In this document: positions 30,996-40,372 of the stretch, piece after piece | Layout of the letters: every line of letters starts with the position of its first letter | How positions within the stretch are numbered: the first letter of the stretch is position 1 | Source: Pseudanabaena sp. UWO311 | GTDB lineage: Bacteria > Bacteroidota > Bacteroidia > Flavobacteriales > Flavobacteriaceae | Assembly: GCA_943371725.1 (NCBI GenBank) | Contig: CALRVY020000001.1 | Coordinates: forward strand, 1 to 61,370 | Length of the DNA stretch: 61,370 bases | Reading direction: 5' to 3' | The notes under the pieces: generated by a model | What the model saw: only the letters and a program-made list of their open reading frames with translations | Databases searched by the model: none | Told to the model about the DNA's origin: nothing | Position numbers and translations under genes: made by a program

Positions 30996-31099
30996 GCGCT
31001 AACGTAAACACGAATGCTCCAATAAACCGTAAAAGAGTACGTCTCTCCTATCTGTGCTAACTTTAATTTTCGGTGTTTATTTCACGACACGTTTTTGCA

Positions 31100-31256
31100 C
31101 GCATTTCCGCACAAGGGATGGCAACGGAAAGCCGTGCCGGCAAACGGCGCTTGAAGCCCGACTGCGTTGTGGCGACCAACGCAAGCCGCGACGCGGCGTG
31201 GCTGAAACGCTTTTGCTTAGTGCGCCTTGCAGTGTACAGCCCGACCTGCCGTACAC
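31100..31256 (-). ncRNA. Flavo-1-like element, copy A of a direct repeat
   Basis: Minus strand GGTCGGGCTGTACACTGCAA...GGCTTGCGTTGGTCGCC...GCTTTCCGTTGCCATCCC. Confidence 0.65.
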
Positions 31257-31622
31257 GATTTGTTTGCGCGGATCTCAAATACGCGCTACCCGATTTTTTA
31301 CGGCAGGATGTGCCCAAAAAATTCGAACCTAAAACCATAAAATAATCTTACGTATTAAAATCTACTTGTTCGACTAACAGTTAGGGCACATTTATATTTT
31401 GTACAACATACTTCTTTCCTTTTTTTGATAACTGCGAAAAAAGTAGTTTATTCGCAATAACGCAAAATGCATATTTCTAGGATATTTAGCCTTATGTTGT
31501 TTTGAACATTTTTAAATAGATGAATTTCAGATTTTTATGTTTTTGCTCTAACAACTTAGGCAATAAACTTAAGATACTACACTAAAAAATTACAACCAAT
31601 AAAAACCAATAAACTATTTTAA

Positions 31623-32366: not shown

Positions 32367-32460
32367 TTTAACTCGATAACCTGAATGCCCGGATTTCCAA
32401 ATCTGTCCTTAAATTTACTTTTTGTTATTTCTGTAAAACCTGAAAAGACACGTTCTTAAA

Positions 32461-32615
32461 CGCATTTCCGCACAAGGGATGGCAACGGAAAGCCGTGCCG
32501 GCAAACGGCGATTGAAGCCCGTAGCGGTGCGGCGACCCAAGAAGCCGAACCAAAACGAGGCTGAAACGCTGTTTGCCGGTGCGCCTTGCAGTGTACAGCC
32601 CGACCTGCCGTACAC
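32461..32615 (-). ncRNA. Flavo-1-like element, copy B of the direct repeat
   Basis: First 50 bp identical to 31100-31149; conserved GTGCGCCTTGCAGTGTACAGCCCGACCTGCCGTACAC end. Confidence 0.65.
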
Positions 32616-32639
32616 TAATGTTTTGCGCGTATCTCAAAT

Positions 32640-34354: not shown

Positions 34355-35278
34355 TTACAAGAAAGGAAGTGTTAATCCTAATTTTAGAGCCGTTTTCGTA
34401 CCTACCACGCCGTCGACATCTTTGGTGGAAAAGTTTGCTTTTTGGAATGCTAAAACGGCGAGCAGTGTATTTTTTCCAAAATGACCATCGATTTGGGTGT
34501 TAAAAAATTCCAGTTCGGTTAATCGTTTTTGTAAGGATACAACTAATTGACCTTTGGATCCGAAACGCAAACGCAGTTGCACCTGTGCGTTGGTTTGGGC
34601 AACAAATTGTGCGTCGGAAGCCCGAAATAAGGCGTAGGAGAATTTGTTTTGTGCTGGCGAATCGCGGTAAATTACGTCGTGGAATTTCTTCCAAAAACCG
34701 GTGTTGGGTGCGTATTTTCTTGATTTTGAATTGGGTAATCCAACAACAACTTGGCAACCTGCGCTGCTGTACGGACCATCGAGTGCGGTACTGTATGAGG
34801 CGTGAATGTTATCGTTTGGGTTTCCAACTTCTATGGAATCGTCGTTGGTAAACACTAAATCGTTTGTGGTACGCCGCAATACAACGTTTGTTGCTAATCG
34901 AAGTGCCGAATGTGCGCCGTTTATACTTGGGTTGTGAAACCCTTTTTCGTAATACGAATAAAAGCCGGATTGCATAGCATTGGCACGCCCCAAACCTGCG
35001 ACTTGTTTTTTCATGTATTTAAGATGTGGGACTGTACTTCCGGGAAACAACGCTATTTGAGAAGTTAACGGATCATAAATACCAAGTAAACAACGCGGAT
35101 TTTCATAATTTAAAACACTTGCTTGAATAACGTGTTCGTTTTTAAAAGTAGCACATGAATGGAGTGTTGAAATACAAGCGCGTAAACCGAAAATTAGTTT
35201 TTCGGTCTTCGAATACTGAAAACTATTTATTGCGAGTAAATATTCGAGATTTTTTGCTGAAAAAGTGAATTTTTCCAT
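34355..35278 (-). CDS. Peptidoglycan-binding protein with putative His/Cys (YkuD-like) catalytic domain
   Basis: NIHA-x12-SAGCQV motif; C-terminal PG_binding_1 (LRFGSKG..V..LQ..L...IDG.FG..T..AV.AFQ...VDGVVG..T). Confidence 0.7.
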   Translation of the reverse strand: MEKFTFSAKNLEYLLAINSFQYSKTEKLIFGLRACISTLHSCATFKNEHVIQASVLNYENPRCLLGIYDPLTSQIALFPGSTVPHLKYMKKQVAGLGRANAMQSGFYSYYEKGFHNPSINGAHSALRLATNVVLRRTTNDLVFTNDDSIEVGNPNDNIHASYSTALDGPYSSAGCQVVVGLPNSKSRKYAPNTGFWKKFHDVIYRDSPAQNKFSYALFRASDAQFVAQTNAQVQLRLRFGSKGQLVVSLQKRLTELEFFNTQIDGHFGKNTLLAVLAFQKANFSTKDVDGVVGTKTALKLGLTLPFL

Positions 35279-36174: not shown

Positions 36175-36202
36175 AAATCCCCTCCCCCAGGGGATTTTTT
36201 TT
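36175..36202 (+). terminator. Intrinsic terminator
   Basis: AAATCCCCT-CCCCC-AGGGGATTT followed by a T-run. Confidence 0.75.
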
Positions 36203-36252
36203 GCTCTAAACTTTTGCTAATTAATGGCTCTGACTGTGTTATAGACTTAATT

Positions 36253-36468
36253 GACGTGAGTTCGATATAAAAGTTGCTGTTTGAAATCATTTAAATAGCT
36301 GGCTACGATGCGGATTTTTTAGAATACCCAGGTATGAAAAAAAAATGCACAGAAATAAACGACTTTTTAAATGATTGGCTTTAAAAACAAGCTAAAGTAA
36401 TTCACGGTGGTAGCATTAAAATCTCATTTTCGTGCGATCTAACAGAGATTTTTTCTAGAACTAACCTT
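36253..36468 (+). mobile_element. MITE, diverged copy of the 32640 element
   Basis: GACGTGAGTTCGATATAAAA left end; shared GAAATCATTTAAATAG and GCGATCTAA; degenerate right end. Confidence 0.7.
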
Positions 36469-36600
36469 ATTTTAGAGCGCACAATCGAACGCGCATATTC
36501 ATTTTTGTTCGAACTTAGCAGTAAATTGCTCTAAAACTGCGTTCGATTAAAAATTTTTGTCAGAACGCTTGAAATGAACAAATTGTGAAATCCAATAGCA

Positions 36601-37305
36601 ATGGAAAAGAACAACTTCCACGCTAAACCCAATTGTATGAATGCAAGAGATTTTTATCGAAAGTACGGCATTGAACTTATTCCTGCTGCTTTAGCCGATT
36701 TAACACTCGGAAAGTGCATCTGGGACGGCGGCTGGTTCGACAAGCCTTCGTTTGAAAAAGCAGGAATGCCTAGCTACATTTTTAATGCTTTTGTAGCAGA
36801 AAATTTGATTACACTCGATGAAAGCGACGCGTATTTACAGCGATTTCGAGAGTTGCCCCGAATCGAAGCTGCCTTTGCTAAAGAAAGTATCGATTTAGAG
36901 ACCGACGACGTACTGCAACTGGGAATTCCGCAATTAGCAAGCATTCAAGCCCGATTTGATTTAGTGAGCAACGGACGTTTTTCGGTTTTAGAAGCTCGTG
37001 GAAAAAGCATACCTAATCGAGATCGCATTATCATTGATCGTTTACTCGACCAGTTAAAATCTAAAAATTGGGACAAATATCGTTCGGCTTTGCGACGCGC
37101 TTACATGATCACTGAACTTTATTACGGCGCTTTGGAAGTAATAATCGACAAACAATGGGAAACCGAACTGGATGCTGCCCTCGGAGTTACTGCCTCCGAT
37201 CAAATGGTAAAACTAAAAGTTGGAAAGTCGATTTCGTACACCTTTCCCAACGGAAATGTACCTTTTGGAATGCGAATCGAACGCATAAAGTTTTTCAATA
37301 GCTGA
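36601..37305 (+). CDS. Putative bacterial gasdermin-like pore-forming protein
   Basis: N-terminal (C)...FYRKYGIELIP...LG, central amphipathic strands, AYMITELY...V, C-terminal YTFP.GNVPFGMRI; alternative start at 36637. Confidence 0.6.
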   Translation: MEKNNFHAKPNCMNARDFYRKYGIELIPAALADLTLGKCIWDGGWFDKPSFEKAGMPSYIFNAFVAENLITLDESDAYLQRFRELPRIEAAFAKESIDLETDDVLQLGIPQLASIQARFDLVSNGRFSVLEARGKSIPNRDRIIIDRLLDQLKSKNWDKYRSALRRAYMITELYYGALEVIIDKQWETELDAALGVTASDQMVKLKVGKSISYTFPNGNVPFGMRIERIKFFNS

Positions 37306-39791: not shown

Positions 39792-40070
39792 ATGAAAAAG
39801 AGTAAACACAGCGACTTGACTCGCGAGCAAATTGAAAAGGTTATGAGTCTAGCCTTGGAGGAAAAAAATCCACTAGAGATCATAAAGAAAGACTTCGGAT
39901 GGTCGGCAAACGAAACCATCGAATTTATGAAAACGAAACTCACCGCCGACAAGTTTGAGCTGTGGAAAAAGAAAGCACAAGCAGCAAAACCCAAACCAAA
40001 GCCCATTCGTTTTGATGATTTTGACGACGATCTCGACGGCAAATATTATATCAAAAATAAATTCGATTAG
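39792..40070 (+). CDS. DUF2805/TIGR03643-like paralog
   Basis: QIEKVMSLALEEKNPLE.IK..FG...F.LW, aligned by eye to the next gene. Confidence 0.65.
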   Translation: MKKSKHSDLTREQIEKVMSLALEEKNPLEIIKKDFGWSANETIEFMKTKLTADKFELWKKKAQAAKPKPKPIRFDDFDDDLDGKYYIKNKFD

Positions 40071-40087
40071 TTCGTATCTTTACGAAC

Positions 40088-40372
40088 ATGAAAACCAGCA
40101 AAGATTTATCTGAAATCCAAATAGATCGAATCATTGAAATGGCTTGGGAAGATCGAACACCTTTCGATGCCATTAAAATGCAATTTGGCATTTCTGAACA
40201 GCAAACAATCGATATTATGCGTCGGGAAATGAAACCTTCGAGTTTCAAACTCTGGCGCGAGCGTGTTCAAGGACGTGCAACAAAACATGCAAAACTTCGA
40301 GAATCAGACGTTGATCGTTTTAAATGTACACGCCAACGTACTATTTCCAATAATAAAATTAGCAAACGCTAA
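40088..40372 (+). CDS. TIGR03643/DUF2805 family protein
   Basis: RIIEMAWEDRTPFDAI..QFG...SFKLWR.RV.GR.TKH. Confidence 0.85.
   Translation: MKTSKDLSEIQIDRIIEMAWEDRTPFDAIKMQFGISEQQTIDIMRREMKPSSFKLWRERVQGRATKHAKLRESDVDRFKCTRQRTISNNKISKR

Follow-up and report, generated by a model that had tools for sequence, protein, structure and literature searches.

The locus and its start codon

The window (the whole stretch of DNA analysed, 61,370 nucleotides) carries an ORF at positions 36601–37305 of the plus strand, which encodes 234 aa from the ATG at 36601 and 222 aa from the ATG at 36637. The start, the AYMITELY motif and the end quoted for this ORF in the preliminary description were all found in its translation. 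The database gene call for 36637–37305 has 222 aa, and the 19 other first-round matches have 211–226 aa. The locus contains the following features:

34355..35278, minus strand: peptidoglycan-binding (PG_binding_1) protein, candidate lysis partner, sole match of that family in the genome
35585..36166, plus strand: NUMOD4/HNH-like gene, syntenic in close orthologues
36175..36207, plus strand: terminator-like hairpin 3' of the NUMOD4 gene, retained in orthologues
36250..36475, no strand given: MITE-like repeat A (12 matches of at least 180 nt on 11 contigs, its own copy included)
36532..36628, no strand given: truncated MITE-like repeat B, containing the ATG at 36601 (37 matches of at least 80 nt on 34 contigs)
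36637..37305, plus strand: gasdermin-fold gene, 222 aa, with the conserved start (from homologue lengths, the AlphaFold model and structural matches)

The flanks had been given as a MITE and an EamA transporter. The transporter does lie downstream and the MITE upstream, but the nearest genes past the MITE are the NUMOD4/HNH and peptidoglycan-binding genes. The label MITE holds, since the upstream insertion of ~380 nt consists of two genome-wide repeats with terminal inverted repeats and is missing from all four close orthologues (78–79% identity). The distance from the upstream gene to the ATG at 36637 is 470 nt here versus about 90 nt in the four orthologues. A MITE family of ~210–230 nt with related terminal inverted repeats is present in dozens of copies in the genome, window positions 36250–36628 among them.

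An earlier proposal was that the choice of start could control lipidation, the Cys being present only when the upstream ATG is used. This is correct for the N-terminal Cys, which a hand alignment would place only a few residues away from its canonical site in bacterial gasdermins (bGSDMs), but the 222-aa form retains C27, in the first core strand. The control itself was contradicted by three observations. The ATG at 36601 lies within the strain-specific truncated MITE and occurs in 23 of the 37 copies of repeat B across the genome; the insertion is missing from the four orthologues; and an in-frame upstream Met followed by Cys within 15 codons was found in none of 69 related loci, a few of which end at contig edges. 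The Cys codon of the 234-aa form sits in the 8-nt junction between MITE and gene, which is spanned by contigs of runs X2 and X5 besides X1, the last possibly being where this DNA came from. Judged from the sequences, the Cys ahead of the 222-aa form is an accident of one strain, although this strain may use the ATG at 36601 as its start. A promoter scan upstream of the gene returned 5 sites versus 5.3 expected by chance.

Elsewhere in the window, two intergenic stretches around a DUF4328 gene (31060–31345 and 32415–32637) give near-identical translated peptides, which suggests another repeated element, and a tandem pair of DUF2805 genes lies at 39792–40372.

The protein has a predicted gasdermin fold

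An AlphaFold2 model of the 222-aa protein was obtained from 75 sequences (pLDDT 83.7, pTM 0.81). When this model was compared with 48,161 chains by VIA-align, the top 11 rows were all gasdermins. The best was 7n50 from Bradyrhizobium (Z 10.1, rmsd 3.9, 186 aligned); 7n52 from Runella gave Z 9.9, rmsd 5.2 and 198 aligned, and the highest-ranked chain that is not a gasdermin gave Z 6.4 with 70 residues. With Foldseek no match reached E 0.001; six bacterial gasdermin chains ranked first (E 1.4e-3 to 1.5e-2, probability 0.97–1.00) and gasdermins occupied the top 8 rows.

At the sequence level, 35 of 85 diverse relatives matched the NCBIfam model NF051890 at E<=0.1 (best E 1.7e-9), none of them meeting its cut-off of 100 bits (best 37.7 bits). 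The 222-aa query itself had no family match in Pfam (a set searched without PF26164), NCBIfam (NF051890 included) or PADLOC and matched no PDB sequence, and PDB sequence searches with three profiles returned no gasdermin either. The family profile aligned by HHalign with five NF051890-type proteins at 92.6% (E 4.7e-7, 117 columns). In the ESM Atlas, two unnamed clusters scored 0.97 and a 'Gasdermin bGSDM' cluster, with PF26164 on 49% of its members, scored 0.96, the recognition value being low. The gasdermin fold that had been suggested is supported by the structural rankings, the NF051890 matches below cut-off and the profile–profile match. Residues 1–222 of the model are gasdermin domain throughout, with no Ig-like C-terminal domain. 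The model also contains no transmembrane helix, as had been described, the N-terminus being a short basic helix. The protein is a gasdermin by its predicted fold, but it does not belong to the canonical bGSDM–protease system. The parts of the protein considered below, all on the plus strand, are these:

36637..36669: basic alpha-1 'thumb' helix, residues 1–11, without Cys (model and alignment)
36718..36753: beta1–beta2 loop, residues 28–39, with a conserved hydrophobic tip (residues 33–34 hydrophobic family-wide in the alignment); putative anchor
36814..36849: extra helix, residues 60–71, in the predicted oligomer interface and not seen by eye in 233/264-aa gasdermins
36883..36987: proto-finger 1, residues 83–117, helical in the soluble model, with alternating hydrophobic/polar sequence
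37129..37245: proto-finger 2, residues 165–203, strongly alternating
37258..37305: landmark V-P-F (F210) and the last 12 residues (structural alignment and sequence landmarks)

Absence of the inhibitory tail and of the lipid-anchor Cys

Residues 1–222 of the model align by VIA-align with residues 9–244 of the Bradyrhizobium protein, 5–239 of the Runella protein and 9–231 of the Vitiosangium pore. The landmark Phe of the solved bGSDMs is F213 in the 266-residue Vitiosangium protein, F220 in the 268-residue Runella protein and F211 in the 259-residue Bradyrhizobium protein. The early stop past the FG strand had been noted correctly: 12 residues follow the Phe of PFG (F210) here versus 48–53 in the full-length solved bGSDMs, and 24 and 27 residues follow it in the activated forms reported as 1–237 and 1–247. 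At 222 aa the protein is thus shorter than even an activated bGSDM, and it ends ahead of the region where the solved proteins have their cleavage loop and inhibitory peptide. The inhibitory contacts described for Bradyrhizobium are F245, F247, F253 and onward, and cleavage in Runella is described after L247.

The same end is found across the family. The residues past the landmark number 10–18 in all 85 representatives (10–12 in 78, 13–14 in 5 and 18 in 2), in an alignment from which fragments were excluded, as were four full-length hits that were atypical or partial. No residues matching the inhibitory peptide follow the last core strand, and the absence of the tail stated in the preliminary description extends to the whole family. 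At least 90% of 75 close members share F220. A truncated gene or an assembly error was rejected, since 65 of the 66 full-length loci have the same end, the remaining one stopping 11 residues past the landmark as judged by eye, and so do 118 of the 120 hits listed (the other two were not parsed).

No Cys occurs in the first 12 residues of any of the 85 representatives, or in the first 20 of any of the 66 full-length loci. Most of the 69 loci have no Cys at all, and C27 is restricted to the closest subgroup. The alpha-1 helix carries a mean net charge of +2.2 over residues 1–10 in 75 relatives. A basic alpha-1 helix and a hydrophobic beta1–beta2 tip are reported to bind the membrane in mammalian gasdermins (PMC12547243), and by analogy the beta1–beta2 loop may be the membrane anchor of this family.

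As a separate observation, the column of V208 holds a Cys, just ahead of the P-F motif, in 29 of the 85 members (overall Cys frequency 0.5%). This column is the position of the palmitate-pocket residue L211 in Vitiosangium, a possible alternative acylation site.

Pore fingers and predicted self-association

The hydrophobic/polar alternation exceeded that of shuffles in the 85-row alignment for residues 83–96 (p 0.0014), 165–183 (p <0.001) and 186–203 (p 0.005), segments that were picked by eye, and was weak for residues 101–120 (p 0.066–0.15). Finger amphipathicity is retained in members of about 20% identity. Parts of these segments are helical in the soluble model, as is described for the proto-fingers of bGSDMs, which refold.

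A three-copy prediction scored 0.44 versus 0.12 for the best control, which may reflect likeness to solved gasdermin pores; among solved pairs, 20 of 30 reached such a mark, as did 1 of 23 single chains, proportions that apply only approximately to the present case. The trimer runs had at least 53% contact agreement and pLDDT of at least 69. The contacts are head-to-tail, helix 127–134 and the C-terminus against 46–54/60–67, and 76–79 against 206–208, with residues 215–222 inside the interface. By a residue equivalence made by hand, this interface resembles interfaces I and III reported for the Runella pore. The prediction is thus one of side-by-side association, as in a pore. Pore formation in Runella is reported to need F243 and L247, within the stretch 234–247, and the 222-aa chain stops before the equivalent of that stretch.

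Spread, selection and phylogeny of the family

The gene had been called an orphan. It has no operon partner, but the 75-row profile recovered at least 494 proteins among 7,996 candidates scored, so it is not without relatives. The full HMMER scan gave 161 clusters at 50% identity, and 114 of the 120 listed profile matches have 221 aa. Members carry 'hypothetical' in public records. The 69 loci taken from GTDB genomes are Bacteroidota by label, bar one labelled Bdellovibrio. The distribution is patchy: other genomes were positive in 1 of 400 cases when drawn by phylum, 8 of 401 by class, 8 of 300 by genus (two of these belonging to a 233-aa group) and 6 of 400 by family (one a fragment). There is one copy in this genome and one match per positive genome searched. 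No fused forms were found among the best 150 of the 161 profile hits, the longest having 339 aa, or in a search of longer proteins, which is weak evidence. PADLOC returned no match for 20 members, and defence-like neighbours were only sporadic; plasmid and phage searches with the query gave no match, and in IMG/VR none of 70 candidates was confirmed. Two loci, L067 and L069, hold broken gene copies, the former near eCIS-core/Ntox15 toxin and immunity genes.

The dN/dS ratio was 0.03–0.06 in six pairs of close orthologues, and in the Bacteroidales group it had a median of 0.11 and a maximum of 0.28 (58 of 496 pairs with usable dS). These ratios indicate that the gene is under purifying selection. 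At about 40 of the 69 loci the surroundings of the gene are constant and of housekeeping type, with CvpA/TyrRS genes on one side and HAD/metallophosphoesterase genes on the other. Across 32 such loci its mean identity is 69% versus 59–89% for eleven neighbours, and its pairwise distances follow those of the neighbours (Spearman 0.26–0.77, TyrRS 0.54), among kin that are not independent. In a quick tree, with a midpoint root for drawing only, 105 tail-less rows were split by a long branch from five NF051890-type proteins (SH-aLRT 98).

Neighbouring proteases and cell-wall genes

For the neighbourhood survey, 853 ORFs from the 69 loci and the window were clustered, and 69 cluster representatives and 144 singletons were scanned with Pfam, together with 117 neighbours of further loci. 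The tail-less clade was grouped by hand into about 32 neighbourhood types. No conserved protease was found, in agreement with the preliminary description. Only one of the ~32 types has a caspase-clan gene at a distance of three genes or less (L124, with an adjacent C25 gene on the same strand). The L001 locus has a C14 gene about 4 kb off, in a slot that varies among its relatives, and other proteases turn up sporadically, with an adjacent S41 gene in L011, a convergent M14 gene in L063 and an S9 gene in L092. As positive control, the long-tailed 264-aa gasdermin of L099 lies beside a CHAT-like gene (E 2.4e-6), and a linked protease is reported for 43 of 50 known bGSDMs. The genome studied here (93.8% complete) has no C14 match; elsewhere it carries one unlinked TPR-CHAT gene and two C25 genes. 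The C14 gene of L001 belongs to a kinase-TPR, Sel1, PP2C and C14 caspase cluster (L001:2-4011) placed where the window has DUF4328, a variable and possibly defensive site.

Genes for cell-wall enzymes or binding proteins were recognised by Pfam within two genes in 5 of the ~32 types, a minority pattern with no proper background. They are the peptidoglycan-binding gene of the window, an adjacent Amidase_2 gene in L005, an adjacent muramidase gene in L088, M15 and peptidoglycan-binding genes two genes up in L007, and a weak M15/PG match, below cut-off, in L122. By motif only, L086 and L087 presumably have two further such neighbours. The peptidoglycan-binding protein of the window matches the PDB through its binding domain only, its full-length form was not found in 40 relatives, and no match to it was found in phages. 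Its Atlas likeness to phage-rich clusters (score 0.84) is weak and a lead only, and its 235-aa N-terminal domain, which has no family assignment, contains a His...Ser-Ala-Gly-Cys motif like that of L,D-transpeptidases. Endolysin-like neighbours have been noted in known bGSDM operons, and these together with the cell-wall neighbours found here suggest that a lytic role is retained.

Response regulator and histidine kinase genes lie beside the gasdermin gene or close to it in L007, L008, L009, L121 and the L022 group. This could mean transcriptional gating, but such genes are common and therefore carry little weight.

Relation to known gasdermins

The clade shares with the bGSDMs 7n50, 7n51 (pore 8sl0) and 7n52, as reported in 10.1101/2021.06.07.447441 and 10.1101/2023.04.20.537723, the fold, the helical proto-fingers, the landmark motif near the end and, as far as the trimer prediction goes, a side-by-side interface. 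In contrast, those proteins are described with a palmitoylated N-terminal Cys, an inhibitory peptide of 17–67 residues, a cleavage loop and a linked protease, and the clade has none of these; it has the extra helix 60–71 and about 10% identity to the solved bGSDMs. The NF051890 'prok_gasdermin'/PF26164 family is homologous, and its 233-aa group (L073, L074) shares the Cys-less N-terminus and the lack of a neighbouring protease, but the clade is set apart on its long branch, scores at most 38 of 100 bits and is 15 residues shorter past the landmark.

Eukaryotic proteins consisting of the pore domain only are also similar. TrichoGSDM of Trichoplax adhaerens (8jyw, Z 6.5) is likewise described as cleavage-independent, but it is held off by disulphides in the beta1–beta2 loop, where most clade members, like anywhere else in the chain, have no Cys. 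RCD-1-1 and RCD-1-2 of Neurospora crassa (8jyx–8jyz, Z 4.4–5.0) are each inactive alone and are reported to be activated by two-allele pairing, whereas the clade gene is single-copy, a very divergent or other-strain partner being possible. The pyroptolysins (10.64898/2026.10.05.756811) are solitary gasdermin-fold genes without proteases as well, but they have 325–400 aa and a sterol-binding Ig-like domain, which the 222-aa protein lacks.

A description of this clade was not found in the available text of the literature covered, which included PMC13475620, PMC13305819, PMC12547243, PMC9612521, PMC10989679, 10.1101/2023.05.28.542683 and few subscription papers. Clade members may already be listed in the supplementary tables of Johnson et al. 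Unannotated gasdermin-like clusters are reported in the AlphaFold database (10.1101/2023.03.09.531927) and could include the clade. Pore-domain-only gasdermins in eukaryotes and solitary gasdermin-fold toxins in bacteria are already known from the reports available; what is described here is an unannotated gasdermin clade, kept by selection, that has no tail, no lipid Cys and no linked protease. Since current family models miss this clade, counts of bacterial gasdermins are too low.

A proposed pore former gated without proteolysis

Self-killing bGSDMs are described as protease-switched and dependent on the lipid anchor, and cleavage-independent activation is described for animals and fungi. 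Canonical bGSDMs are reported to turn toxic once the tail is removed, and the tail to latch over the palmitate. In the tail-less Vitiosangium protein, the C4A change is reported to nearly abolish killing, and the soluble tail-less state to be stable in simulations. Because the C4A tail-less protein barely kills, a natural protein without tail and lipid would be expected to be latent and to need no brake. From the missing tail, lipid-anchor Cys and partner protease it follows that a different trigger would be needed. The reading that we consider best, to which we give an even chance, is a latent, cleavage-independent pore former that has given up its brake along with its lipid anchor and assembles side by side after a non-proteolytic trigger. 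In such a protein the loss of the lipid would have made the tail dispensable, and the basic first helix and the hydrophobic beta1–beta2 tip would replace the lipid as membrane anchor. The trigger could be induced expression, or it could be supplied from outside the locus, by a phage protein, a protein induced by stress or the lipid state of the membrane. Side-by-side assembly would then produce a pore in the membrane of the cell itself, and the outcome would be self-lysis, aided in some lineages by a neighbouring cell-wall enzyme. More speculatively, and with the balance somewhat against it, the clade may have dropped both proteolysis and lipidation to become a single 220-residue sensor and executioner that directly senses a phage protein or the membrane state.

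Several results stand against the cleavage-independent pore former. The equivalent of Runella 234–247, reported to be needed for pores (F243, L247), is missing; in the ~40 loci of the fixed housekeeping slot the gene is as conserved as its neighbours, unlike an island-borne defence gene; segment 101–120 alternates weakly, the query has no family-model match and Foldseek gave none at E 0.001; and the distant member L124 has an adjacent C25 protease.

The first two of these also favour a domesticated, non-lytic gasdermin that would bind the membrane and oligomerise as a scaffold or small sub-lytic channel. Its identity and distances track those of the neighbours (TyrRS Spearman 0.54), and it has neither a lipid anchor nor the pore-forming stretch reported in Runella. 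We consider this alternative unlikely, though worth keeping in mind, since the family is unevenly spread (1 of 400 other genomes drawn by phylum and 8 of 300 drawn by genus) and finger amphipathicity is kept at about 20% identity. An outward-acting toxin, harmless to its maker, released by lysis and probably specific for a membrane lipid of other organisms, is rather improbable. The pyroptolysins are precedents as solitary genes without proteases that are reported to be non-toxic inside E. coli (10.64898/2026.10.05.756811), and the conserved beta1–beta2 tip could sense a lipid, but no Ig-like targeting domain was found among the best 150 of the 161 profile hits (nor, weakly, among longer proteins), there is no visible export signal, and the neighbour survey showed no conserved immunity-like gene.

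There is only a slim chance that the protein is a holin substitute, its pore freeing a signal-less cell-wall enzyme in a two-part lysis or secretion module. The cell-wall neighbours of L005, L007, L088, L122 (weak) and the window fit this role, and the window gene is the sole member of its family in the genome, its full-length form not having been found in the 40 relatives. However, ~27 of the 32 neighbourhood types, the largest included, have no Pfam-recognised cell-wall gene within two genes; the window gene is divergently oriented with another gene between and has a catalytic domain without assignment, and accessory regions may be rich in such genes. Activation by an unlinked protease (TPR-CHAT and two C25 genes in the genome, C25 beside L124, C14 ~4 kb from L001), through cutting of an internal loop or of the last residues as a miniature latch, is equally doubtful: F220 is conserved and the structural alignment ends at Bradyrhizobium 244, beside the reported latch residues F245/F247, but by sequence landmarks the chain ends 12–15 residues short of the known cleavage sites, in the portion described as retained in active pores, residues 215–222 are in the predicted oligomer interface, and no C14 match exists in the 93.8% complete genome.

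If the more speculative reading, of a single sensor and executioner, is correct, this would be a bacterial gasdermin acting on its own cell without cleavage, of which no example was found in the literature covered, and the smallest working gasdermin scaffold. The clade has neither control element, yet it is intact under selection across Bacteroidota; it allows other ways of gating a bacterial gasdermin to be tested directly at the bench, and it bears on whether the protease–tail switch is ancestral or was added later.

Two further groups of gasdermins were observed. The 233-aa Bacteroidota proteins of L073, L074, L084 and L085 are Cys-less and solitary, meet or approach the NF051890 cut-off and are already labelled 'gasdermin' publicly. 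They have 27 residues past the landmark, which is the end of an activated bGSDM, and among the neighbours in this group are a GH25 lysozyme in L095 and, in L094, a DUF900 hydrolase. A still shorter gasdermin-like group of 207–211 aa comprises L093, L122, L124 and L125; in L124, a lipase-like gene lies beside the gasdermin-like gene, along with the adjacent C25 protease.
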